Below, piece after piece: positions 13,908 through 25,903 of a DNA stretch of 64,000 nt. Where the stretch lies: assembly GCA_965215505.1 (NCBI GenBank), contig OZ244065.1, positions 4,000,001 through 4,064,000 on the forward strand, written 5' to 3'. The DNA is from Capsulimonadaceae bacterium (GTDB taxonomy: Bacteria; Armatimonadota; Armatimonadia; Armatimonadales; Capsulimonadaceae). Within the stretch, counting starts at the first letter, position 1. Each line of letters opens with the position of its first letter. The notes under the pieces were generated by a model. It was not told the DNA's origin and ran no database searches. It worked only from the letters and a program-made list of their open reading frames with translations. Made by a program: the position numbers and the translations under genes.

Positions 13908-14043
13908 GCCCCCACCCCCGGCCCCTCCCCCGCAAGCGGGAGAGGGGGGTCAGATTCGGATTCAGGGCGAAGCGGGGATCGTTCGGCTTCCCTCCTTCAT
14001 GCTCCCCTCTCCCGCTTGCGGGGGAGGGGCCGGGGGTGGGGGC
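13908..14043. repeat. long palindromic element, family A
   Basis: perfect 40-bp inverted repeat 13908-13947 / 14004-14043. Confidence 0.9.
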
Positions 14044-14996
14044 GACTGCTCCTCTCGAACAGAAACAAAGGCAGCATCATCGCACTGACGGCGACAACGG
14101 AGCAAAGAGGCGGCGCGGACCGGCTGGGGATCGGGCTGGCCCTGTTGGGGGTGTACCTCGTCTGGGGGTCCACTTATCTCGGCATGAAGATCGGGCTGGA
14201 GGGATTTCCGCCGTTCCTGATGGGTGGTCTTCGCTTTATCCTGGCGGGCGGCGGGCTGATGCTGGCCCTGCGCGGGCGCGGCGAGCCGGCCCCGACGGCG
14301 GCGCAGTGGCGCGGGGCGGCGCTGGTGGGCTGCCTGCTGCTGGGGCTGGGCAATGGCGGGATCATGCTGGCCGAGTACAATGGTGTCACGTCCGGCCTTG
14401 CCGCTCTGGGCGTCGCGACCGTGCCGCTGTGGGCGGCCCTGTTCGCCGGGCTGTGGGGAGAATGGCCTTACAAGCGCGAGTGGCTGGGGATCGCGGTCGG
14501 GTTCGTCGGCATCGTCTGCCTGAATTTGGAAGGCGGCCTGCGGGCCAGCCCATGGGGCGCGCTCGCGCTCATCGTCTCCGCATTAGGCTGGTCCTTCGGG
14601 TCGGTCTGGAGCCGACGGCTGCCCCTGCCTTCGGGCGCGATGGCCCCGGCCGTGCAGATGCTCTGCGGCGGCGTCCTGCTGCTGGGCATCGGGGCGGCGA
14701 CCGGGGAACACCTGCACGGCCTGCCGCCGACACGGCCCCTGCTGGCCTTCGCGTACTTGGTCTTCGGGGCCGTGGCGGGCTACAGTGCTTATGCCTACCT
14801 GCTGGCACACGTCCGGCCCGCCCTGGCGACGAGCTATGCCTATGTGAACCCGATCGTCGCAGTCTTGTTAGGGTCGCTGCTGGCGGGCGAACGGCTCGGC
14901 CTGATGGGGATGGCCGCGCTGCTGTTAATCGTCCTGGGCGTCGGTCTGACCGCCTTCGCCAAGGCGCCGGAGCGCGGGAAGGGGCCACGGACATGA
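14016..14996 (+). CDS. EamA/DMT transporter (YedA-like); start uncertain
   Basis: [21 protein letters not shown]; about 10 TM helices. Confidence 0.88.
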
Positions 14997-15406
14997 CTCG
15001 TCGGAACGTCAGCACGGGGACGCCCTGGGAGCCGGTCGTCGGCTACTCCCGCGCGGTGCGCGTCGGCAGCGTCGTCCATGTTTCGGGCACGACGGCGACG
15101 GACGCCGGCGGGAATCTTGTTGGCATCGGCGATGCCTACGCCCAGGCGCGGCAGGCACTAGAAAACATCGAGGCCGCCCTGCACGCGGCGGGCGCACGGC
15201 TGGAAGACGTGGTCCGCACACGGGTGTATGTCACGGACATCAGCCGCTGGGAAGAGGTCGGCCGAGCGCACGGCGAGGTCTTCGGGTCCATCCGGCCCGC
15301 CACCAGCATGGTCGAGGTCCGCGCACTGATCGCCCCCGAGATGCTGGTGGAGATCGAGGCCGAGGCGATCGTCATGGACAACGGGGGCGAGCAAGAATTA
15401 GCCTAG
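14993..15406 (+). CDS. RidA family protein
   Basis: [33 protein letters not shown]. Confidence 0.92.
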
Positions 15407-16301: not shown

Positions 16302-17144
16302 ATGACACAAGCGGAAGTTCTCATCCAGGCCCTGCCCTACATCAAGCAGTACGCGGGCAAGACGGTCGTCGTCAAGTACGGCGGCGCGGCGATGCTCGAC
16401 GAGTCGCTCAAGGCCGCCGTCATGCAGGACATCGTCCTGATGCGCTACGTCGGCATCAACCCCATCCTCGTCCACGGCGGTGGGCCGGAGATCAGCGACG
16501 CCATGCACCGCATGGGCAAGGAGCCGCACTTCGTCGGCGGCCTGCGCGTCACCGACGCCGAGACGATGGAGATCGTCGAGATGGTGCTGGCCGGCAAGAC
16601 CAACAAGGGCATCGTCGCGCTGCTGAACCAGCAGGGGGCGCTGGCCGTCGGCGTCTCCGGCAAGGACGCCAACCTGATCGTCGCCGAGCGCGAGACCACC
16701 AAGGGCGACATCGGGTTCGTCGGGCGTGTGACTCAGATCAACCCGGCTTTGCTGCACACCCTGGTCGCGGCGGGCTACATCCCCGTCATCTCCACGGTCG
16801 CCATCGGCAAGGGGGGGGAGAGCTACAACATCAACGCCGACACGGTCGCGGGGGAGCTTGCCGCCGCTTTAGGCGCGGTCAAGCTGGTGATGATGACGGA
16901 TGTCGAGGGCATTTACCAGGACTTCGCCGACAAGGACAGCCTGATCCGCGAGATGTCCGCCAAGGACGCCCGCCAGCTCATCACCGACGGCCATGTGGAT
17001 CGGGGCATGATCCCCAAAGTGGAAGCCTGCGTCATCGCCGCCCAGGGCGGCGTCGAACGCACCACGATCATTGACGGCCGGCTGCCGCATTCGCTGCTGA
17101 TCGAGATGTTCACGCACGAGGGCATCGGGACGATGATTCGGTAG
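16302..17144 (+). CDS. argB: acetylglutamate kinase
   Basis: VVKYGGAAM, VHGGGPEI, GLRVTD, NINAD, GMIPKV. Confidence 0.97.
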   Translation: MTQAEVLIQALPYIKQYAGKTVVVKYGGAAMLDESLKAAVMQDIVLMRYVGINPILVHGGGPEISDAMHRMGKEPHFVGGLRVTDAETMEIVEMVLAGKTNKGIVALLNQQGALAVGVSGKDANLIVAERETTKGDIGFVGRVTQINPALLHTLVAAGYIPVISTVAIGKGGESYNINADTVAGELAAALGAVKLVMMTDVEGIYQDFADKDSLIREMSAKDARQLITDGHVDRGMIPKVEACVIAAQGGVERTTIIDGRLPHSLLIEMFTHEGIGTMIR

Positions 17145-17153
17145 GGAGCGGAA

Positions 17154-17264
17154 CCCCCACCCCCCGCCCCTGCCCCCGCAAGCGGGAGAGGGGAGTCAGA
17201 AAGAGATAGTCCTGACCCTCTCCCGCTTGCGGGGGAGGGTGGCGAGGAACGAGCCGGGTGGGGG
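17154..17264. repeat. long palindromic element, family A
   Basis: CCCCCGCAAGCGGGAGAGGG / CCCTCTCCCGCTTGCGGGGG arms after the argB stop. Confidence 0.85.
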
Positions 17265-17292
17265 CTATCCCCTCCGCCCTGAGAGTGACACC

Positions 17293-18561
17293 ATGACCAC
17301 CACCTACGCGCCCGAAACCACTCACGCGCCTGAAGCATCGTATACCTTGGACCGCGCCACCGGCCACATCTCGCCCGCCGTGGACGACGCCGAGATCAAG
17401 CGCCTGGACGACGGCTACCTGCTCCCCGTCTACGCCCGCCTGCCCGTCACCCTCGTGCGCGGTCAAGGAGTCCACGTCTGGGATGCCGACGGCAAGAAAT
17501 ACTTGGACTTCCTCGCCGGCATCGCCGTCAACGCCCTAGGACATTGCCACCCTAAGATGGTCCGGGCCATCACCGAGCAGGCCCAAACCCTGATCCACAC
17601 GTCGGGGTACTATTACACCGCCCCGGTCGCCAGACTGGCCGAGAAGCTGGTCGGCATCAGCGGCATGGACCGCGTCTTCTTCAGCAATTCGGGGGCGGAG
17701 GCCAATGAGTGCGCCATCAAGATCGCCCGCAAGTACGCCAAGGCCCACGGTGGGCCGGACAAGTACGGCATCGTCACCGCGAAGAAGTCCTTCCACGGGC
17801 GGACCATGGCGACCGTCACGGCGACCGGCCAGCCCAAATACCAGGAGCCGTTTGCGCCGGTCGTGCAGGGATTCACCCATGTCCCCTACAACGACATCGC
17901 CGCGCTTGAAGCCGCCGTGACTGATGACACCTGCGCCGTCCTGCTGGAGCCGATCCAGGGCGAGGGCGGCGTCTACCCGGCCTACAAGACTTACCTTGAA
18001 GCCGCCCGCGCTTTGTGCGACAAGCACCAGGCCTTGCTCATCTTTGATGAGGTCCAGACGGGGGTGGGGCGCACCGGCAAATGGTTTGCCTATGAGCATT
18101 ACGGTGTCGTCCCCGACGTCCTGACCTCCGCCAAGGCTCTAGGAGGCGGCTTCCCCATCGGGGCCTGCCTTGCGCGCGGCGAGGCTGCCTTGACCCTCGT
18201 CCCCGGCGACCACGGCAGCACTTATGGCGGCAACCCGCTGGCCTGCGCCACGGCCCTGGCGGTCTTGGAGACGATTGAGGAGGAGCATCTGCTCGCCAAC
18301 GCTCACGCGATGGGGGCGTACTTCGTCCACCGCCTGAACGAGAAGCGTTTCGCGGGCAAGATCGCCGACATCCGCGCCGTCGGCCTGATGGTCGGCGTCG
18401 AGCTTGCCGCCCCCGACGCCAAGCGCGTCATGACCGAGGCGATGGGGCGGGGCCTGCTGATGAGTGCCATCGGCGACCACGTCCTGCGGTTCGTCCCGCC
18501 GCTCATCATCACGCAGTCCGACGTGGACGAGGCCATAGACGTGCTGGCGGCGGTGGTGTGA
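17293..18561 (+). CDS. argD: acetylornithine aminotransferase
   Basis: YLDFLAGIAVNALGH, NSGAEANE, FHGRT, DEVQTG, AKALGGG. Confidence 0.96.
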   Translation: MTTTYAPETTHAPEASYTLDRATGHISPAVDDAEIKRLDDGYLLPVYARLPVTLVRGQGVHVWDADGKKYLDFLAGIAVNALGHCHPKMVRAITEQAQTLIHTSGYYYTAPVARLAEKLVGISGMDRVFFSNSGAEANECAIKIARKYAKAHGGPDKYGIVTAKKSFHGRTMATVTATGQPKYQEPFAPVVQGFTHVPYNDIAALEAAVTDDTCAVLLEPIQGEGGVYPAYKTYLEAARALCDKHQALLIFDEVQTGVGRTGKWFAYEHYGVVPDVLTSAKALGGGFPIGACLARGEAALTLVPGDHGSTYGGNPLACATALAVLETIEEEHLLANAHAMGAYFVHRLNEKRFAGKIADIRAVGLMVGVELAAPDAKRVMTEAMGRGLLMSAIGDHVLRFVPPLIITQSDVDEAIDVLAAVV

Positions 18562-18673
18562 CCTACCCCCGGCATAAGTGCCGACCCCCCCTGTTAGGGA
18601 AGGGTGAAGAGCAGACAGTACAGAGCATACCCCCACGCTCTTCCTCTTCACCCTCCGTTAACAGGGGAGGGGT
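18562..18673. repeat. long palindromic element, family A variant
   Basis: CCCCTGTTA..GAAGGGTGA / TCACCCTC..TAACAGGGG arms after the argD stop. Confidence 0.65.
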
Positions 18674-18691
18674 CTGAAGGAGCAATCCGTC

Positions 18692-20881
18692 ATGTGGCAG
18701 CGTTTCAACGCGCAGGCGCGCAGGGTCGTTTCTAACGCCCAACAGGAGGCCGCGCGATCCGGTGTCGCCGTCACCGCCGAACACCTGCTGATGGCCTTGC
18801 TTCGGGAGAACGGTTCGCTAGCCGCCCGCATTCTTGACCGGCTCGCCGTGGACCGGGCGGCGCTGCAAGCCGAGGTAGACCGGCAGTTTCGTGCGCCCGC
18901 GCCCGAGGCGCTTGTCGCCCCGGCATCGCCCGAGTCCTTCTCGCCGGGTGCGAAGAAGGCCATTGACCTCTGCTATGAAGAGGCACACGGCCTGCGCGAC
19001 AACTCCATCGGAACGGAACACCTCCTGCTCGGCCTCCTCCGGGATCAGGAGGGGCCGGCCGGACGCACCCTGACACAGTTCGGCGTCACGAACAAGCGGG
19101 TGCGCGCCGAGATCGCCGGGCTGCGGGGCGATGGTCTACAAGCCGGCCCGAGGGGGCTGTGGGACCGCGTCCCCGAATCGAAACCCTGGTTTTGGGGAGC
19201 CGGGGGAGCGCCCGAACAGACACTGTCCGCTCGAAAGGAGCAACCCGCCATGTGGCAGCGATTCACCGAACGCGCGCGAAAAGTCGTCTTTTACGCCCAG
19301 GAAGAAGCCGGGCGGCTGGGCGAAAACTACGTCTCCACCGAACACCTGCTGCTCGGCCTGGTCCGGGAGAATGACACCGTGGCCGCCCGCATCCTGGACC
19401 GGCTCGGCATCAGCCTGGGCCGCGTCCGGTCCGAGATCGAGCGGCAGGTGGCGCACGGCCAGGGACGGCTGGGCCAGGACATGCAGCTCACGCCGCGCGC
19501 AAAGCGCGTGATAGACCTCGCCTATGATGAGGCGCGGAACCTCGACAACAACTACATCGGGACCGAACACCTCCTGCTGGGATTAATCCGTGAGGGCGAG
19601 GGCCTGGCGGGCAAGGTGCTGGCGATGCTTGGCGTTGACCTCGACCGCACCCGGCACGAGGTCGCCGAGTTGCAGCAGGGAAAAGCTAAGGATAAGGCCG
19701 GCGATGATTCTGCCCCCGCTGCGGTGCCGGAAACCGCGCTGGGCGAGTTCAAGGCCCTGCGCGAGTTCAAGAAGGCCATGATCTCGTTCGTCGCCGACTA
19801 CAACCCCCGGCCTCCGAGGGAGACCGGGCCGCAGGCCGGCGAAACCGGTACATCGGCGGAACCGGCGGCGAAACAGCCGCCCGCGCCCGGCAGCCCGTCC
19901 CAGCGCATGGCCCCGCCCCGAGGCCGGTCGGCCCTTGCCGACGTTCTGGAAGAGCCGCGCCTGCGTCGCCGGGACATCTTGGGCATTGAGACACTGACCC
20001 AGGAGGAGATCCTGCTGATCCTGGATGTCGCCGCGCGCCTCAAAGCCAACAAGTTTGACGCGACCCAGACGCAGTTCGCCAAGGGGCAGACGTTGGCGAT
20101 GCTTTTCGAAAAGCCGTCGCTGCGGACCCGCGTCACCTTTGAGGCGGGTATGACCCAGCTCGGCGGTCACGCCATCTATCTGGAGGGCAAGCTGGGCGTC
20201 CGCGAAACCGTTCCGGACGTCGCCCGCAACCTGGACCGCTGGATAGACGGCATCATGGCCCGGACCTTTGACCATCAGGCCGTGCTGGACCTGGCCGAAT
20301 ATGCCGGCATCCCGGTCATCAACGGCCTGTCCGACCGCGAACACCCCTGCCAGGCGTTCGCCGATTTCCAGACGCTGGCCGAGCGCGGGGGCGGGCTGCA
20401 CAGCCTGGCCGGGCAGACCCTCGCCTACGTCGGGGACGGCAACAATGTCGCCCACTCCTTGATGCTGCTGGCCGCCAAGGTCGGCACCGATTTCCGCCTG
20501 ACCTGCCCCGAGGGCTATGACCCCAACCCCGAGCTGTGGCAGGCGGCGCTCGGGTTCGCCGCCGAAACCGGGGCCGTCCTCACCCTGACCCACGACCCCG
20601 TCGAGGCCGTCCGGGACGCCGACGCCGTCTACACCGACGTCTGGGCCTCAATGGGCCAGGAGGAGGAGGCCGCCGCCCGCGCCCTCATCTTCGCCCCGTT
20701 CCAGGTCAACGCCGCCCTGATGGCGCACGCCAAGCCCGGCGCTCTGGTGATGCACTGCCTGCCCGCCCACCGGGGCGAGGAGATCAGCGCCGAGGTCCTG
20801 GACGGCCCGCAGTCGGTCGTGTTCGACCAGGCCGAGAACCGCCTGCACGCGCAGAAGGCGATATTGAGCCTGGTGCTGTGA
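18692..20881 (+). CDS. argF: ornithine carbamoyltransferase with two N-terminal Clp-repeat (ClpC NTD-like) domains
   Basis: two MWQRF...EHLL...GTEHLLLG domains, a Pro/Ala linker, then OTCase motifs KPSLRTR, HPCQ, GDGNNV, WASMG, HCLP, AENRLH in one frame. Confidence 0.93.
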   Translation: MWQRFNAQARRVVSNAQQEAARSGVAVTAEHLLMALLRENGSLAARILDRLAVDRAALQAEVDRQFRAPAPEALVAPASPESFSPGAKKAIDLCYEEAHGLRDNSIGTEHLLLGLLRDQEGPAGRTLTQFGVTNKRVRAEIAGLRGDGLQAGPRGLWDRVPESKPWFWGAGGAPEQTLSARKEQPAMWQRFTERARKVVFYAQEEAGRLGENYVSTEHLLLGLVRENDTVAARILDRLGISLGRVRSEIERQVAHGQGRLGQDMQLTPRAKRVIDLAYDEARNLDNNYIGTEHLLLGLIREGEGLAGKVLAMLGVDLDRTRHEVAELQQGKAKDKAGDDSAPAAVPETALGEFKALREFKKAMISFVADYNPRPPRETGPQAGETGTSAEPAAKQPPAPGSPSQRMAPPRGRSALADVLEEPRLRRRDILGIETLTQEEILLILDVAARLKANKFDATQTQFAKGQTLAMLFEKPSLRTRVTFEAGMTQLGGHAIYLEGKLGVRETVPDVARNLDRWIDGIMARTFDHQAVLDLAEYAGIPVINGLSDREHPCQAFADFQTLAERGGGLHSLAGQTLAYVGDGNNVAHSLMLLAAKVGTDFRLTCPEGYDPNPELWQAALGFAAETGAVLTLTHDPVEAVRDADAVYTDVWASMGQEEEAAARALIFAPFQVNAALMAHAKPGALVMHCLPAHRGEEISAEVLDGPQSVVFDQAENRLHAQKAILSLVL

Positions 20882-21030: not shown

Positions 21031-21760
21031 CAGGCCCAGCGGGTCGTCCCCCGGATTGAAATCCGGGTCTTCGGTAAAGCGGTTGTCCACCTGCGTGGAC
21101 ATAAGATTAGCTCAGGGGACTGTTCCTCTGTCCGCGTAGGCGGACATTCGCACTACTAAAGACCCGGATTTCAATCCGGGGGACGATGCGCCGGGCCTGA
21201 CCGCCGGGCCTGACCGCGCCGCCAAGAACAACTCGCCACGGAGGGCGCTGGACGGACTACTAAGGAGGGTGCGATGGCACACAACTACACTCGGCTGTTC
21301 TATCACTTCGTCTGGGCCACCTGGGACCGGACGCCGCTGCTGACCGGGGAGGTCGAGGCGAGGGCTTATGCGCTGATCCGCCATCAATGCGCGGAGCAGG
21401 TCTGCAAGGTCCATGCGCTCGGCGGCGTCGAGGACCATGTGCATCTGTTGGTGAGTCTGCCGACGACGCTCAATGTCGCCGACTTTATCAAGTCCGTCAA
21501 AGGTCCCTCGTCGCGGGCGCTCAATGAGAGCTTCGGGCGGCCCACATGGAGCTTCAAGTGGCAAGGCCGCTACGGTGTTATCACCGTCTGCCCGTCGCAT
21601 GTCGGCCTGATCCGTGGCTATGTCGAGGGCCAGAAACAGCACCACTCCGAGGGCGGCCTTTGGGCCTCCTGCGAGAAAACGGAAACCGAGGAGGGATAAA
21701 CTCCCTTGTCCGCGCAGGCGGACACTCGCTTTACTAAAGACCCGGATTTCAATCCGGGGT
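21024..21760. mobile_element. IS200/REP-associated HUH transposase locus with three REP-like units
   Basis: CCCGGATTGAAATCCGGG hairpin plus GTCC-N-GGAC hairpin units at ~21049-21100, 21130-21182 (inverted pair) and 21708-21760. Confidence 0.8.
21274..21699 (+). CDS. tnpA: Y1 HUH transposase (IS200/IS605 TnpA or RAYT-like)
   Basis: LFYHFVWAT, EDHVHLLV (HuH), WQGRYG, YVEGQKQHH; AAGGAGG RBS. Confidence 0.92.
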   Translation: MAHNYTRLFYHFVWATWDRTPLLTGEVEARAYALIRHQCAEQVCKVHALGGVEDHVHLLVSLPTTLNVADFIKSVKGPSSRALNESFGRPTWSFKWQGRYGVITVCPSHVGLIRGYVEGQKQHHSEGGLWASCEKTETEEG

Positions 21761-21785: not shown

Positions 21786-22985
21786 ATGCCTAAAACAGTC
21801 GTCCTCGTCTACTCCGGCGGCCTCGACACCTCCGTCGCCATCCCCATGATGCGCGAAGACTACGGCTTCGAGCGCATCGTCACCGTCACCGTGGACGTCG
21901 GCCAGCCCGCCGAAGACGTCAGGAGCGCCGAGGACCGTGCCCGCGCCATGGGGACCGAACACTACACCGCCGATGCCAAGAAAGAGTTCGTCGAGGAATA
22001 CTGCTGGCCCGCCGTCCGCGCCAACGGCGACTACCAGGGCTACCCGCTGTCCACCGCCATCGCCCGGCCCCTGATAGGGCTGAAGGCCGTCGAGGTCGCT
22101 CGGCAGGTCGGCGCGGACGCCTTCTGCCACGGCTGCACCGGCAAGGGCAACGACCAGTTCCGCATCGAGTACGTCATGCGCGCCTTGATGCCCGACACGC
22201 CCATCATCGCCCCGATGCGTGAACACAACTACACGCGGACCGAGGAGATCGAGTACGCCCACCGGAAGGGCATCCCCATCTCGGTGAGCGCCGACAAGAT
22301 CTGGTCCATTGACGAGAACCTGTGGGGCCGCTCCATCGAGGGCGGGCACCTGGAAGAGCCGAACTACGCCCCGCCGGAGGAGATCTTCCAGTGGACCAAG
22401 GGCATCGAGGCCGCGAACCCCGGCCCGCAGATGCTCACCATCGGCTTTGAAAACGGCATCCCCGTCTCGCTCGACGGTGAGGCGATGGACGGGCTTTCCC
22501 TCGTGACTCGCTTGAACAAGATCGCCGGCGACAACGGGGTGGGGCGCGTGGACATCATGGAGGATCGCCTGCTGGGCCTCAAAGTCCGCGAGAACTACGA
22601 GTGCCCCGCCTCCACCGTCCTGATTAAAGCGCATAACGCTTTGGAGTCCCTGGTCGCGACGGCCGCCGAGCGCAAGTTCAAGCTAATGGTGGACCAGCAG
22701 TGGGGCGAACTGGCCTACTACGGCCTGTGGTTCGACCCGCTGAAAGAGGACCTGGAAGCCTTCATCGGCAAGGTCCAGGAGCGGGTGACGGGGACAGTCA
22801 CCCTGCGCCTGTTCAAGAGCAGCCTGACCGTCGTGGGCCGCGCGTCGGAGTGGGCCTTGTACAACGAGGACCTGGCCTCCTTCGACTCCAAGACCTTCGA
22901 CCAAAGCCTCTCGGTCGGCAACGTCCAGACCCACGGGATGCAGTCGCGGATGTACTGGGCCTTGAAGGAGAAGCACGGCAAGTAG
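21786..22985 (+). CDS. argG: argininosuccinate synthase
   Basis: YSGGLDTS, ARPLI, HGCTGKGNDQ, SIDENLWGRSIEGG. Confidence 0.97.
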   Translation: MPKTVVLVYSGGLDTSVAIPMMREDYGFERIVTVTVDVGQPAEDVRSAEDRARAMGTEHYTADAKKEFVEEYCWPAVRANGDYQGYPLSTAIARPLIGLKAVEVARQVGADAFCHGCTGKGNDQFRIEYVMRALMPDTPIIAPMREHNYTRTEEIEYAHRKGIPISVSADKIWSIDENLWGRSIEGGHLEEPNYAPPEEIFQWTKGIEAANPGPQMLTIGFENGIPVSLDGEAMDGLSLVTRLNKIAGDNGVGRVDIMEDRLLGLKVRENYECPASTVLIKAHNALESLVATAAERKFKLMVDQQWGELAYYGLWFDPLKEDLEAFIGKVQERVTGTVTLRLFKSSLTVVGRASEWALYNEDLASFDSKTFDQSLSVGNVQTHGMQSRMYWALKEKHGK

Positions 22986-23003: not shown

Positions 23004-23390
23004 ATGACCATCCCGTGGCTCGTTCACTCCCTGTTCCAGAACGTGTTCCAGAACGTGTTCCAGCTCGTGCTGCTGGCGCTGGGCGTTGCCATCTCCCTGA
23101 GCGGCCTGCTGTTCCTGCTGAGTGCCCTGGGCGGGGGAAAGCGGGTGTCGGTTGGGGGAAGCGTCCTGGGGATCGTGAGTGGCGCGCTGTGGGCGGCCAC
23201 GGCATTGCTGGAGAGTGACCCCCGGCGGCATCATCTGGGGGCCGTCCTGCTGGACGCCGGGATGCTGCCCCTCATGCTCTACGCCGCACAGCTTACGCGG
23301 CGGCGCAAGGCAGACGTGCCGGGGCAGATGCCCTCTCCCGACACGGTCTGGCCCCCGCCGCCGACCCCGCGCGGGGACACAGCCCCATGA
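23004..23390 (+). CDS. small membrane protein with C-terminal VWPPPP motif
   Basis: three hydrophobic segments, basic stretch, DTVWPPPPTP. Confidence 0.7.
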   Translation: MTIPWLVHSLFQNVFQNVFQLVLLALGVAISLSGLLFLLSALGGGKRVSVGGSVLGIVSGALWAATALLESDPRRHHLGAVLLDAGMLPLMLYAAQLTRRRKADVPGQMPSPDTVWPPPPTPRGDTAP

Positions 23391-23782
23391 CACTGCACTG
23401 GCTGACTCAGGTGTTCCAATGGCTGAGACAGTACCCGCCCTCGTCCCTGCTCTGCATCATAGGCGGCTGTCTTAGCCTCATAGGCAGCGGCGCTCGGGTG
23501 CTGTCAACCCTGGACAAACAGACCACCGCCGAGGCGTCGGCCCATGCCGCCGGGATGGTATTTGGTGCCGGCCTTGCTGGGAGTCATGCCTTGCGGGTGA
23601 TACCCCAATGTAAGCCTTTGGCTGATGTCCTGGGGGACCTCGGCGCGATCTCGGGGATCATCTATCCGTTCCTGCTGCTGAACAACAGGAAAAAGAAACT
23701 CGCCGATCCGCAGGCACAGGCTCAACCCGCCGCGCTCTCGGCTGAGATCTGGCCCCCGCCGCCGACTGCGCCGGGCGGCTAA
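23387..23782 (+). CDS. small membrane protein with C-terminal IWPPPP motif
   Basis: same architecture as the upstream gene; ATGA overlap. Confidence 0.7.
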   Translation: MTLHWLTQVFQWLRQYPPSSLLCIIGGCLSLIGSGARVLSTLDKQTTAEASAHAAGMVFGAGLAGSHALRVIPQCKPLADVLGDLGAISGIIYPFLLLNNRKKKLADPQAQAQPAALSAEIWPPPPTAPGG

Positions 23783-24410: not shown

Positions 24411-24478
24411 GCGTTGATTATGGCACATCGCCGACGCTTTCACCCATCTTCGTTTTGTTCTCATCTAAGGCGGTCATC

Positions 24479-25903
24479 ATGTCCTCATCCATGTCCTCAT
24501 CAGCACCCAAACTCTGGGCCGGGCGGTTTGCCCAGGAAACCGACGCGCTCGTGCATCAGTTCAACGGCTCCCTGCGCTTCGACCGGCGGCTGTGGCCGTA
24601 TGACATCCAGGGCAGCATCGCGCATGTGAAAATGCTCGGGGAGTGCGGAATAATCGCAGGAGAGGACGCACAGGCGATCGCGGACGGGCTGGAGGCGCTA
24701 GCCGCCGACCTGCACTCTGGGACCGCCGCCCTGGACCCGGACGCCGAGGACGTACACATGGCGGTCGAGACGCTGCTGACGGCCCGGCTGGGGCCGGCGG
24801 CGGGGAAGCTGCACACGGCCAGGTCGCGCAACGACCAGGTGGCGACCGACCTGCGGCTGTATGTCCGGGAGGCGATCAACGGGCTGAGGGGGCGCATCGC
24901 GGGCGTGCAGACTACTCTTGTAGGGCAAGCGGGAAAGCATTTAGACACATTGCTGCCGGGCATGACGCACTTGCAGCACGCGCAGCCGGTCCGGCTGGCC
25001 CACCACCTGCTGGCCTACTTCTGGATGCTGGCGCGCGACGACGAACGATTGGCCGAGGCGCGGGTCCGGGTGAACATCCTGCCGCTGGGGGCGGGCGCGC
25101 TGGCGGGGACGACGTTCCCGATCAACCGGCAGCGGGTCGCGGACCTGTTGGGCTTCGGGGGAGTGGCCGATAACAGCCTGGACGCCGTTTCGGACCGGGA
25201 CTTTGCCATCGAGACGGTTTCGGCGCTGGCGCTCGTGATGATGCACCTGTCGCGACTGTGCGAGGAATTGATCCTGTGGAACTCGCCCGAGTTCGGCTGG
25301 GTCGAGATGGGCGACAACGTCACCACGGGCAGCTCGATCATGCCGCAGAAGAAGAATCCGGACGTGGCGGAACTCGTGCGCGGCAAGGCCGGGCGCGTCT
25401 ACGGGGATCTGTTGAGCCTGCTGACGGTGATGAAAGGCCTGCCGCTCGCGTATAACAAGGACATGCAGGAGGACAAGGAGGCCCTGTTCGACGCCCTGGA
25501 CACCGCCCACGTCTGCCTGACGGTGATGGACACGCTGCTGGTCAACACGACGTTCCGGGCGGAGCGCATGGCCGCCGCCCTGCGCGGCGACTTTTCGACG
25601 GCGACGGACCTCGCCGACCATCTGGTCCGGCAGGGCCTGCCCTTCCGGCAGGCGCATGAGGTGATCGGGAAGATCGTCGGCGACTGCGTCCGGACCGGGC
25701 GCGTCCTGGAAGATTTGACGAGGGACGACCTCCTCGCCGCCTCCGCGCTGTTCGCGGGCGCGGACCCGGCCGCGCTGGTCAGCCCGCGCGGCAGCGCCGA
25801 CGCTCGCGATGCTTACGGCGGGACCGGGCGCGGGGCGGTCGAGGCGCAGCTCGAGCGCGCCCGGCGGCATCTGGCCGCGAAAGGCGGCACAGGGGCCGCC
25901 TAG
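24479..25903 (+). CDS. argH: argininosuccinate lyase
   Basis: LWAGRF, HTARSRNDQ, THLQHAQP, GSSIMPQKKNPD, YNKDMQEDKE. Confidence 0.97.
   Translation: MSSSMSSSAPKLWAGRFAQETDALVHQFNGSLRFDRRLWPYDIQGSIAHVKMLGECGIIAGEDAQAIADGLEALAADLHSGTAALDPDAEDVHMAVETLLTARLGPAAGKLHTARSRNDQVATDLRLYVREAINGLRGRIAGVQTTLVGQAGKHLDTLLPGMTHLQHAQPVRLAHHLLAYFWMLARDDERLAEARVRVNILPLGAGALAGTTFPINRQRVADLLGFGGVADNSLDAVSDRDFAIETVSALALVMMHLSRLCEELILWNSPEFGWVEMGDNVTTGSSIMPQKKNPDVAELVRGKAGRVYGDLLSLLTVMKGLPLAYNKDMQEDKEALFDALDTAHVCLTVMDTLLVNTTFRAERMAAALRGDFSTATDLADHLVRQGLPFRQAHEVIGKIVGDCVRTGRVLEDLTRDDLLAASALFAGADPAALVSPRGSADARDAYGGTGRGAVEAQLERARRHLAAKGGTGAA

Follow-up and report, generated by a model that had tools for sequence, protein, structure and literature searches.

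A ClpC-type N-terminal domain, present in two copies, fused to the ornithine carbamoyltransferase of a Capsulimonadaceae bacterium

Results

The window analyzed here is a stretch of 64,000 nucleotides from a Capsulimonadaceae bacterium (contig OZ244065.1, positions 4,000,001 to 4,064,000 of the forward strand). It carries an arginine cluster in the order argB-argD-[gene]-Y1 transposase-argG-argH, and the gene at the argF position, as the initial annotation had placed it, is a single ATG-started open reading frame (18692-20881, forward strand) of 729 aa without internal stops. From the N- to the C-terminus the product consists of ClpN domain 1, a disordered linker, ClpN domain 2, a second linker and an intact ornithine carbamoyltransferase (OTCase) (Table 1). 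Translation, Pfam and NCBIfam confirmed the earlier description as one frame with two Clp-repeat domains and an OTCase, and all motifs named at that time, in both ClpN domains and in the enzyme, were found at the expected positions. The inverted repeat between argD and argF has arms that are 85% complementary and 32 nt apart, and the Y1 transposase ORF is flanked by identical hairpins (21163-21180 and 21741-21758).

Table 1. Features of the ClpN-ArgF gene and the surrounding arginine cluster
Feature	Position	Strand	Remarks
argB	16302-17144	+	arginine cluster, upstream of the ClpN-ArgF gene
argD	17227-18561	+	arginine cluster, upstream of the ClpN-ArgF gene
27-nt inverted repeat	18585-18670		argD-argF intergenic, directly upstream of the RBS
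AAGGAG, Shine-Dalgarno-like hexamer	18677-18682	+	9 nt before ATG 18692
ClpN-ClpN-OTCase (ArgF) gene	18692-20881	+	729 aa, stop codon included; ORF list, Pfam, NCBIfam
ClpN domain 1	18692-19129	+	aa 1-146; Pfam, model, pocket comparison
Inter-domain linker	19130-19249	+	aa 147-186; LWDRV motif, putative in-frame fossil RBS
LWDRV motif	19157-19171	+	in the inter-domain linker
AAGGAG, putative fossil ribosome-binding site	19235-19240	+	9 nt before in-frame ATG 19250
ClpN domain 2	19250-19711	+	aa 187-340; ClpC-type N-domain; Pfam, PDB alignment
Second linker	19712-19969	+	aa 341-426; low model confidence, one helix
Linker helix	19742-19795	+	aa 351-368; structure model
Pre-OTCase motif PSQRMAPPRGRSALADVLEEPRLRRRD	19895-19975	+	aa 402-428; family-conserved
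OTCase catalytic region	19970-20872	+	aa 427-727; SLRTR, HPCQ, SMG, HCLP; Pfam
IS200-type Y1 transposase ORF	21274-21699	+	between argF and argG
argG	21786-22985	+	arginine cluster, downstream of the ClpN-ArgF gene
argH	24455-25903	+	arginine cluster, downstream of the ClpN-ArgF gene

All 30 depth bins of the gene are covered by contigs from four runs of four studies, which span 19336-20330, 19331-20265 and 19471-20086 without gaps and also bridge 18600-19360, the junction of domains 1 and 2. A stop or frameshift in the linker had been named as an outcome that would break the fusion; contigs of the four runs cross the region 19700-19960 without gaps. The sole indel listed in the contigs is an additional T behind 19248, in one contig (depth 4 of 20.2) of run X1. 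This run may be the source sample. The 22 runs listed include no RNA run that holds the sequence. A false joining of two or three neighboring genes by assembly or annotation, to which frameshifted pieces in some related assemblies (G015, G009) might point, is rejected as practically excluded because the junctions are bridged and because in-frame fusion is seen, in spite of indels in the linker, in 119 of the 120 best database homologues, which come from many assemblies. ClpN-ClpN-OTCase is one real gene and a real fusion.

The enzyme part matches Pfam OTCace_N (aa 427-564, E 1.4e-43) and OTCace (aa 574-727, E 2.1e-59), along with the NCBIfam ArgF equivalog TIGR00658 (382.2 bits, cut-off 280.85) and NF001986 (410.3 bits, cut-off 306). 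SLRTR (aa 476-480), HPCQ (551-554), SMG (653-655) and HCLP (688-691) correspond to S-x-R-T-R, H-P-x-Q, D-x-x-x-S-M-G and H-C-L-P, which we take to be the carbamoyl-phosphate and ornithine motifs; in an alignment of 90 homologues (A1) their columns show either no variation or a conservation of 90% or more. Genome-wide profile search revealed no other OTCase, the second OTCace_N match being PyrB (395 bits, cut-off 263). Profile scores, motifs, the arginine context and the single copy agree with membership in the anabolic ArgF group, and ClpN-ArgF appears to be the organism's sole anabolic ornithine carbamoyltransferase, with predicted activity and a predicted trimeric state. The pre-OTCase motif PSQRMAPPRGRSALADVLEEPRLRRRD also heads unfused ArgF proteins of close relatives.

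Four Clp_N repeats (Pfam, E 5.4e-58; 193.4 bits, gathering score 20.7) make up the two ClpN domains. In the structure model both are folded with pLDDT above 90, the pTM is only 0.53, and pLDDT falls below 50 at aa 148-185, 336-351 and 370-407. The second linker, previously described as rich in proline and alanine, indeed consists of 35% Pro and Ala by count. Among homologues the linker is between 13 and 190 aa long, always in frame, with whole domains (the N-terminal part of T2SSE, or MshEN) inserted in some, and a hydrophobic-W-x-R motif recurs after the ClpN domain. As modelled, the ClpN domains are tethered flexibly by disordered linkers in a beads-on-a-string manner. A complex prediction for OTCase (aa 395-729) with ClpN domain 2 and the linker helix (aa 187-390) (A1) gave a score of 0.00 and counts neither way; an ESM Atlas search for look-alikes of aa 187-729 returned no usable match.

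ClpN domain 2 contains FTERA (aa 191-195), STEH (215-218), LTPRA (266-270) and GTEH (290-293), and it is identical to the N-terminal domain (NTD) of the genome's own ClpC at 126 of 140 positions. Its positions 1-144 align without gaps to 1-144 of solved ClpC1 and ClpC N-domains, and these structures include 5hbn, the B. subtilis NTD with bound phosphoarginine (pArg) (E 1e-43). The pockets of ClpC NTDs bind pArg, and the residues given in the excerpt of PMC12583610 are T7, R9 and E32, and E106 with K85, in B. subtilis/S. aureus numbering. In ClpC1 numbering, domain 2 has the full set of pocket residues (T6, R8, T30 and E31; T81, R83, K85, T105 and E106), and its 11-position pocket signature equals that of the own ClpC. 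The pair T81/R83 is the putative symmetric counterpart, assigned by repeat symmetry. The same codon is used at only 87 of 130 identical-residue positions of domain 2 and the own ClpC NTD; therefore the likeness is attributed to selection and not to recent gene conversion.

Across homologues, an intact pocket signature was found in the OTCase-proximal domain of 61 of 93 one-domain, 17 of 22 two-domain and 3 of 4 three-domain proteins, and in only 3 of the 22 distal domains of the two-domain group. In alignment A1 (90 sequences) conservation reaches 90% or more at T6, R8, T30, T81, R83, K85 and T105, and E31 and E106 show no variation at all. Outside the family of the window, degeneration of the second pocket is frequent: R83 is replaced in families f9, f19, f27 and f33 and also in genomes G085 (f7) and G111 (f8). 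For 11 loci, ten of genus g1 and one of a sister genus (g2), median pairwise dN/dS was 0.097 for ClpN (40 pairs), 0.080 for OTCase (55 pairs) and 0.444 for the linker (51 pairs). These sequence comparisons indicate that domain 2 is a conserved functional module and that purifying selection acts on it about as strongly as on the OTCase.

According to the initial annotation, the pocket residues persist in domain 2 and the Thr/Arg residues are lost from domain 1; the PDB alignment, the signature table and the motif positions bear this out, with domain 1 lacking most pocket residues. Its motifs are FNAQA (aa 5-9), TAEH (28-31), FSPGA (83-87) and GTEH (107-110), and the pockets are degenerate (N6, Q8, A30, S81, G83) with E31, K85, T105 and E106 kept. 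It is 49% identical to domain 2 and 87% identical to domain 1 of the homologue P0003, a protein that is 89% identical overall and keeps the junction, with the frame open through it. Based on these comparisons domain 1 seems to be a later, degenerate extra copy, which may have arisen in one of two ways: as a tandem copy that took the 5' leader along, or from a clpN-like gene upstream whose stop codon was lost. Under both origins the fossil RBS and ATG are still present in frame. Orthology of domain 1 to the separate clpN-like genes of relatives was considered and rejected, as domain 1 (29-33% BLASTP identity) is no closer to their products than domain 2 is (32-38%). The evidence for a stop-loss fusion is therefore the layout, comprising the fossil RBS and the tail motif as well as the gene arrangements seen in G024 and G174.

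The spacing of AAGGAG and ATG at 19250 equals that at the annotated start (9 nt), and translation from this internal site could yield a 543-aa product. It is conceivable, although we consider it unlikely, that translation also or mostly begins there and gives the usual one-domain ClpN-ArgF, domain 1 then being a dispensable leader or a separately acting piece. Besides the spacing, this would agree with the single ClpN domain of 93 of the 119 fused homologues (from the best 120), with the extra T behind 19248, which would split the parts, and with G024, where a separate clpN-like ORF directly precedes the ClpN-ArgF gene. However, the frame is open across the junction in contigs of four runs and in P0003, the identity to P0003 together with pLDDT above 90 argues that domain 1 is not decaying, and two- and three-domain forms recur in other families.

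The architecture is not rare. Many Armatimonadota have it as their common form of the enzyme, in most cases with a single ClpN domain (93 of the fused homologues; 22 have two and four have three). All named homologue records belong to this phylum, and public records label the fused proteins simply as 'ornithine carbamoyltransferase'. ClpN-ArgF was found in about 35 of the 130 sampled phylum genomes having an OTCase; 86 of the 131 OTCase frames in the sample are shorter than 450 aa. Long OTCase frames were rejected as ClpN fusions in f25 (617 and 846 aa; GC-rich read-through before the true start) and in f11 and G029/G032 (ArgD-ArgF fusions). The statement that no ClpN-ArgF architecture had been described agrees with our literature search, which found no Clp-OTCase fusion.

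In four relatives the clpN-like ORF is separate, and its stop codon overlaps with the start codon of argF (ATGA). These split genes, together with the order argD-[ClpN]-argF kept among relatives, provide Rosetta-stone evidence of a functional link. No ClpN was detectable beside ArgF in four close relatives (L023, L024, L029, L036), so the module is dispensable in some lineages. The separate clpN-like proteins lack most pocket residues yet are retained; retention of degenerate pockets, there and in domain 1, indicates that pArg binding is not the whole story. In family f2 the fused domain has drifted far from ClpC. A tree of 119 ClpN domains (144 columns) had good support for only 9 of 105 inner branches and thus does not decide between one and several ClpC origins; ArgF domains of genus g1 grouped weakly with g1 ClpC (SH-aLRT 90).

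One operon of the genome contains an mcsA-like ORF, a McsB candidate and ClpC (854 aa). The presence of mcsB, proposed earlier as a point to check, stands in part: the candidate lies directly upstream of clpC and exceeds the PF00217 cut-off (178.9 bits, E 2.4e-52), but its best NCBIfam match, 'protein arginine kinase' NF002194 (295.9 bits, E 3.7e-88), is below the equivalog cut-off of 385. The mcsA-like ORF (63 aa, Cys-rich) has an McsA match (E 2.1e-11) that stays under the curated cut-off; among the McsA, ClpC and ClpP assignments this one is the weakest. ClpP (254 bits), ClpS and an LMW phosphatase are also encoded. PF00217 occurs in 27 of 35 candidate ClpN-ArgF genomes and in 50 of 116 others, an enrichment that is not strict and is confounded by relatedness (7/10 families). 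It is absent in 8 of the 35 (families f7, f8 and f33); all five ClpC NTDs checked from f7 and f8 have the full pocket signature.

Further ClpN proteins of the lineage include a ClpN-HTH-T2SSE/PilB-like ATPase (655 aa; pocket changes R8A, T30P, R83S and T105A), a TM-ClpN protein (281 aa), ClpN with a small C-terminal domain (314-356 aa) and stand-alone ClpN (170 aa).

Discussion

Among the functions suggested initially, we favour a tie of ArgF to ClpCP/McsB and a trimer-displayed decoy. Based on ClpC, whose NTD pockets bind pArg, and on mycobacterial ClpC2, a non-AAA+ homologue of the ClpC NTD described as a pArg-responsive sensor (PMC13345244, excerpt), we propose with a probability of roughly 0.5 that ClpN, on its flexible tether, reads phosphoarginine or ClpC adaptors and so couples trimeric ArgF to McsB-ClpCP. 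Domain 2 would bind the ligands of the ClpC N-domain, McsB-written phosphoarginine marks and/or ClpC adaptors, and the OTCase trimer would display three or more readers, which may couple it physically to McsB-ClpCP stress proteolysis. ArgF might in this way undergo regulated turnover or be sequestered; another possible outcome is buffering of pArg-tagged proteins, as proposed for ClpC2. Such binding, and any consequence for ArgF or ClpC, is inferred.

A wider and more tentative view, which we hold to be possible but doubtful, is that the Armatimonadota ClpC N-domain serves as a portable phosphoarginine-reader module, comparable to SH2 for phosphotyrosine, through which arginine phosphorylation of the McsB type, as a signalling mark, would recruit, assemble or switch non-proteolytic targets. 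Its own start region might allow splicing before an OTCase, a PilB-like ATPase, a membrane protein or small proteins, and arginine synthesis could then be controlled directly by arginine phosphorylation of the proteome, beyond degradation. As to the choice of partner, the reader model gives no reason for ArgF in particular as the carrier.

It is also imaginable that ClpN docks on the OTCase and modulates its activity upon sensing a small ligand, for example free phosphoarginine, arginine or carbamoyl phosphate. ClpN is conserved together with the enzyme across the phylum, the split forms are translationally coupled to argF by the ATGA overlap, as for subunits of one complex, and the short helix at aa 351-368 and the recurring hydrophobic-W-x-R motif are possible docking elements. 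Such allostery nevertheless appears quite improbable. Linkers of 13-190 aa, some holding the T2SSE part or MshEN, and modelled as disordered with segments of pLDDT below 50 and a pTM of only 0.53, fit poorly with the rigid allosteric domain considered initially, and we know of no free phosphoarginine pool as a metabolite in bacteria. The free-arginine sensor of the initial annotation is likewise unlikely, as the pockets are those of the own ClpC and, in the excerpt of PMC12583610, pArg had an effect on S. aureus ClpC and non-phosphorylated arginine had none.

Similarly improbable is a decoy or sponge for attackers of the ClpC N-domain, such as cyclic-peptide antibiotics or effectors of phages or competitors. 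A decoy has to retain the exact sequence of the ClpC NTD that it imitates, and the 126/140 match of domain 2 to the own ClpC under strong purifying selection is what a target mimic needs; the parallel would be mycobacterial ClpC2, which binds and sequesters cyclomarin A and rufomycin (excerpts of PMC13345244 and PMC10030653). ClpC-like N-domains on several other proteins in the order would add sponge capacity. Against this, a decoy offers no reason for the conserved link to ArgF or the fixed argD-ClpN-argF slot, and the drift of the fused domain away from ClpC in other families (f2 forms) would defeat mimicry. Moreover, we know of no natural product targeting ClpC in Armatimonadota.

In ClpN-ArgF an essential enzyme of biosynthesis carries a nearly perfect duplicate of the ClpC reader domain; this arrangement, which annotation as plain 'ornithine carbamoyltransferase' hides, is conserved across a phylum that has received little study. 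The natural variants, with one to three domains, split genes or loss, form a ready-made experimental series. To our knowledge, phosphoarginine is almost solely known as a degradation tag read by ClpC, and mycobacterial ClpC2 is the sole other reader described so far. If domain 2 binds pArg, ClpN-ArgF would be the first metabolic enzyme wired to arginine phosphorylation and a natural counterpart of the pArg-based degraders made by engineering; binding of something else would reveal a further role of the highly conserved ClpC N-domain surface.

Comparison with known systems

Canonical anabolic ArgF has about 305-340 aa. ClpN-ArgF has the catalytic region, the motifs and the arginine cluster in common with it and differs by the N-terminal extension, with about 425 extra residues before the catalytic region. 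With other ClpN fusions of the lineage it shares the N-terminal MWQRFTE... ClpC-like module, often with its own RBS; their partners are different, and the copies within the own genome have partly degenerate pockets.

Domain 2 and the NTDs of ClpC/ClpC1 from B. subtilis, S. aureus and M. tuberculosis (5hbn, 3wdc, 6cn8) have fold family, length, both pArg pockets, K85 and the double Clp_N repeat in common, with 90% identity to the own ClpC. In ClpC the NTD is followed by AAA+ modules, an M-domain and a ClpP-binding loop, whereas in ClpN-ArgF the NTD occurs twice and is followed by a disordered linker and an enzyme. No AAA+ domain was found in ClpN-ArgF, where ClpB, ClpA and ClpK profiles match about 150-265 N-terminal positions only and far below cut-offs, and the protein is no Clp ATPase.

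Mycobacterial/actinobacterial ClpC2 and domain 2 are both ClpC-NTD homologues outside an unfoldase. According to the excerpt of PMC13345244, ClpC2 binds pArg as a sensor or sponge, is about 40% identical to the ClpC1 NTD and has one pocket and a fused repressor module. In contrast, domain 2 has 90% identity to ClpC, both pockets and an enzyme partner, and the PDB chains of ClpC2 match it with E values of just 4e-18 to 2e-14. In ClpC2 the order of the domains is reversed, with a DNA-binding N-terminal part and a C-terminal ClpC-NTD-like domain; in ClpN-ArgF no DNA-binding domain exceeded the Pfam threshold (Sigma70_r4, 16.7 bits, cut-off 24.1). ClpN-ArgF is therefore not a member of the ClpC2 type, but by analogy it may work alike.

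Architecture and integrity of the ClpN-ClpN-OTCase fusion

The 729-aa protein contains two ClpN domains (aa 1-146 and aa 187-340, making four Clp_N repeats), followed by OTCace_N (aa 427-564) and OTCace (aa 574-727), all far over the Pfam thresholds. Its C-terminal 305 residues match the NCBIfam ArgF equivalog TIGR00658 with 382 bits (cut-off 280.85), and all the sequence motifs quoted in the initial annotation were located where it had placed them. Because the only further carbamoyltransferase in the genome, a single 6.18-Mb contig, is a clear PyrB, the fusion protein is the only OTCase of the cell. Within the cluster, identical hairpins (CCCGGATTGAAATCCGGG) flank the Y1 transposase ORF, and the segment 21163-21758 therefore resembles a REP-associated transposase unit.

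Logan contigs from 4 runs of 4 studies cover the whole stretch. The junction between domain 1 (distal) and domain 2 (OTCase-proximal), 18600-19360, was bridged by contigs with 0 differences in the public sequencing runs X1, possibly the source sample, and X4. The ClpN-OTCase linker, described initially as part of one frame, is likewise spanned by gap-free contigs (19336-20330, 19331-20265 and 19471-20086). The sole indel listed, an extra T behind 19248 in a single X1 contig (depth 4 of 20.2), lies just before the internal ATG. Perhaps an error, perhaps a minor variant, it would break the link between domain 1 and the ClpN-ArgF portion. Homologues provide independent and stronger evidence: in a collection of 5.8 billion proteins, ClpN and OTCase share a single chain in 119 of the 120 best matches (one being a copy identical to the query), the exception, P0094, having four ClpN domains and no OTCase. 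Linkers of the fused homologues measure 13-190 aa (median 84), with the frame kept in every case. The fusion architecture is real and widespread.

Features of the fusion gene, its surroundings and related loci
Feature	Position	Strand	Remarks
ClpN-ClpN-OTCase ORF	18692-20881	+	729 codons, start ATG, free of internal stops
Shine-Dalgarno-like AAGGAG	9 nt before ATG of 18692 ORF	+	from sequence
Arginine cluster			order: argB, argD, ClpN-ClpN-argF, IS200-type transposase, argG, two small ORFs, argH
27-nt inverted repeat	18585-18670		85% complementary, 32-nt spacer; immediately precedes the ribosome-binding site of the fusion
Weaker copies of one repeat arm	12635; 30453		two
W/F-x-R motif, LWDRV	19157-19171		after domain 1
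W/F-x-R motif, other loci			split tails L034, L035, L028, L032; L177
W/F-x-R motif, linkers			homologues P0026, P0043, P0051, P0063, P0068
6-residue repeat EFKALR / EFKKAM	19748-19783		in linker; absent from close relative P0003
IS200-type Y1 transposase ORF	21274-21699		separates argF from argG
Hairpins	21163-21180; 21741-21758		identical
Two ORFs between argG and argH	23004-23782		128 and 131 aa, without family match
456-aa ORF upstream of cluster	14036-15406		RidA/L-PSP domain confined to last 115 residues
McsA-like ORF, probable McsB, ClpC	1.727-1.731 Mb of genome		head to tail; McsA-like 63 aa, Cys-rich; ClpC 854 aa
ClpN-HTH_17-T2SSE (PilB/GspE-like) ATPase	G000:C1:3791962-3793929 (L168)		655 aa, own genome
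Membrane protein with C-terminal ClpN	G000:C1:93176-94021 (L169)		281 aa, N-terminal hydrophobic segments

Distribution in the phylum

The 119 fused proteins, query included, have one (93), two (22) or three (4) ClpN domains. Loci of the window's genus and of its sister genus are commonly arranged as argD-ClpN-argF. Our phylum sample comprised 151 genomes, with an OTCase match in 130; open frames of 450 aa or longer contain 45 of the 131 matches, seven frames of 395-435 aa falling short of this limit. Candidate ClpN fusions make up 35 of these long frames, in ten families (24 verified with the ClpN profile, 11 inferred from frame length alone). Two others, in family f25, are GC-rich read-through ahead of the true start, and eight are of the ArgD-ArgF type: two of them (G168 and G029) were checked, and six more f11 frames (704-748 aa) were assigned by length and probably have the same form. 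These in-frame fusions of acetylornithine aminotransferase and OTCase (~720-740 aa; L043 in G029, L044 in G032, L166 in G168) belong to one genus of the sister family and to family f11. When one genome per species was scanned, the full 543-aa query was covered by 5 of the best 80 loci, with titles of Capsulimonadaceae, Armatimonadales, Chthonomonadaceae and Chthonomonadales. Plain OTCases from other phyla made up the remaining 75. The ClpN-ArgF architecture is old.

Origin of the two-domain form

The 15 bases ahead of the domain 2 ATG, AAGGAGCAACCCGCC, are almost the same as those preceding the annotated start, AAGGAGCAATCCGTC, and are translated within the inter-domain linker; the close two-domain relative P0003 retains the same fossil leader. 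Likely intermediates are found in G024, where a separate clpN-like ORF directly precedes a ClpN-ArgF gene, in G174, with two separate clpN-like ORFs, and in four split-gene relatives (G016, G014, G018 and G001), where a ClpN-free ArgF follows a diverged clpN-like ORF with the stop/start overlap ATGA. A hydrophobic-W-x-R-hydrophobic motif occurs in the tails of the split proteins, in several one-domain linkers and, as LWDRV, past domain 1. Since sequence identity did not single out domain 1 as an orthologue of the separate clpN-like proteins, both a tandem duplication including the leader and a stop loss between two genes are possible origins. With the ribosome-binding site and ATG before domain 2 retained, a one-domain 543-aa product could therefore also be made.

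What lies between argD and argF differs among close relatives (L023, L029, L036, L033, L034, L035, L028, L032). In some this slot contains fused ClpN, in others a clpN-like ORF, either separate with an ATGA overlap or together with ClpN-ArgF; its other occupants are a Y1 transposase, a GNAT-like ORF and a small T2SSE-N-like ORF.

Phosphoarginine pockets and selection

Residues 1-144 of domain 2 align one-to-one with solved ClpC1/ClpC N-domains (E ~1e-43), and 126 of 140 residues are identical to the cell's own ClpC N-domain. The phosphoarginine (pArg) pocket set was assembled from the ClpC residues named in PMC12583610 (T7, R9, E32, E106, K85), the conserved Thr of ClpC2 (PMC13345244), and symmetric partners. 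In domain 2 this set is complete and identical to that of the cell's own ClpC, while domain 1 shows N6, Q8, A30, S81 and G83, with E31, K85, T105 and E106 as the only residues retained, in agreement with the initial annotation that domain 2 had retained, and domain 1 lost, pocket residues. The full signature (11 pocket positions, ClpC1 numbering) occurs in the OTCase-proximal domain of 61/93 one-domain, 17/22 two-domain and 3/4 three-domain proteins, and in the distal domain of only 3/22 two-domain proteins. Recent gene conversion from ClpC as the source of this likeness was ruled out, because one in three identical residues is encoded by a different codon (the codon is the same in 87/130).

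Median pairwise dN/dS across 11 related loci was 0.097 for ClpN, 0.080 for OTCase and 0.444 for the linker, figures that are rough because dS often exceeds 1; the proximal domain is under purifying selection. Domain 1 of the window and that of P0003 are ~87% identical (counted on the alignment); domain 1 is modelled with pLDDT >90 and is not in decay.

Structural model and linkers

The AlphaFold2 model of the 729-aa protein, built with 90 homologues (mean pLDDT 85.4, pTM 0.53), has three well-folded bodies with low-confidence joins at aa 148-185, 336-351 and 370-407 and a single linker helix at aa 351-368. The predicted arrangement is flexibly tethered beads on a string, not a compact regulatory domain. 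A hydrophobic-W/F-x-R-hydrophobic motif, which may be a docking peptide, recurs 10-30 residues past ClpN domains and at the C-terminus of stand-alone ClpN proteins.

Linker inserts in seven homologues (P0056, P0060, P0074, P0075, P0078, P0116, P0107) match the first ~120 positions of the T2SSE ATPase profile, or MshEN; in P0107 the MshEN domain sits between two ClpN domains. The presence of such segments in ArgF linkers suggests that ArgF and T2SSE ATPase genes exchange through a shared 5' module. The T2SSE ATPase of the own genome is itself headed by a ClpC-like module, and this fusion recurs in many relatives (frames 627-695 aa). Related families carry the module on 314-356-aa proteins and stand-alone. 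Four of these proteins in family f2 (L172, L173, L174, L175; 314-356 aa) have a very ClpC-like N-domain followed by a conserved C-terminal domain of ~100 aa, for which no family was detected (motifs ARDxxGY and GWI...GPD..FPP).

Proposed function

A probable McsB gene, whose presence the initial annotation had left to be looked up, lies beside ClpC. Its product scores 178.9 bits on PF00217, and the NCBIfam family that it matches best is 'protein arginine kinase' (E 3.7e-88, under the equivalog cut-off). The genome further encodes ClpP, ClpS, ClpB and an LMW phosphatase. The cell probably has an McsB-ClpC system. Domain 2 would bind the same ligands as the ClpC N-domain, namely pArg marks. Its ligands might also include ClpC adaptors, or even the M-domain/AAA1 surfaces of ClpC itself, with which the pockets and K85 are in contact in resting ClpC (PMC12583610). 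Such binding would link the trimeric OTCase to stress proteolysis, with the trimer acting as a regulated client, an adaptor-like partner or, as PMC13345244 proposes for ClpC2, a buffer for pArg-proteins. We infer this role as a ClpC-type ligand reader with a probability of about one half.

Three observations count against a simple dependence on McsB. A PF00217 match is absent in 8/35 candidate ClpN-ArgF genomes (families f7, f8 and f33), families other than the window's often lack an intact pocket 2, and degenerate copies (domain 1, split clpN-like proteins) are retained. The ClpC N-domains checked in f7 and f8 carry the full signature in 5/5 cases; intact pockets with a missing kinase match mirror the mycobacteria, in which conserved pockets without a known kinase are a puzzle (PMC13345244). 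The free-arginine sensor raised in the initial annotation is unlikely, since ClpC responded to pArg but not to plain arginine (PMC12583610).

Comparison with known systems

Public records label ClpN-ArgF proteins as plain OTCase. The initial annotation knew of no described ClpN-ArgF protein, and full-text literature searches, over main texts, gave no account of a Clp-OTCase fusion; the architecture has apparently never been studied before, and it makes a clear biochemical hypothesis testable. Both parts, ArgF and the ClpC-type N-domain, are already known. Functionally, the closest precedent is ClpC2, a pArg-sensing, non-AAA+ homologue of the ClpC N-terminal domain. The fusion protein is not ClpC, because it lacks the AAA+ modules, and it is not ClpC2, because it lacks the DNA-binding part and its domain order is the opposite.
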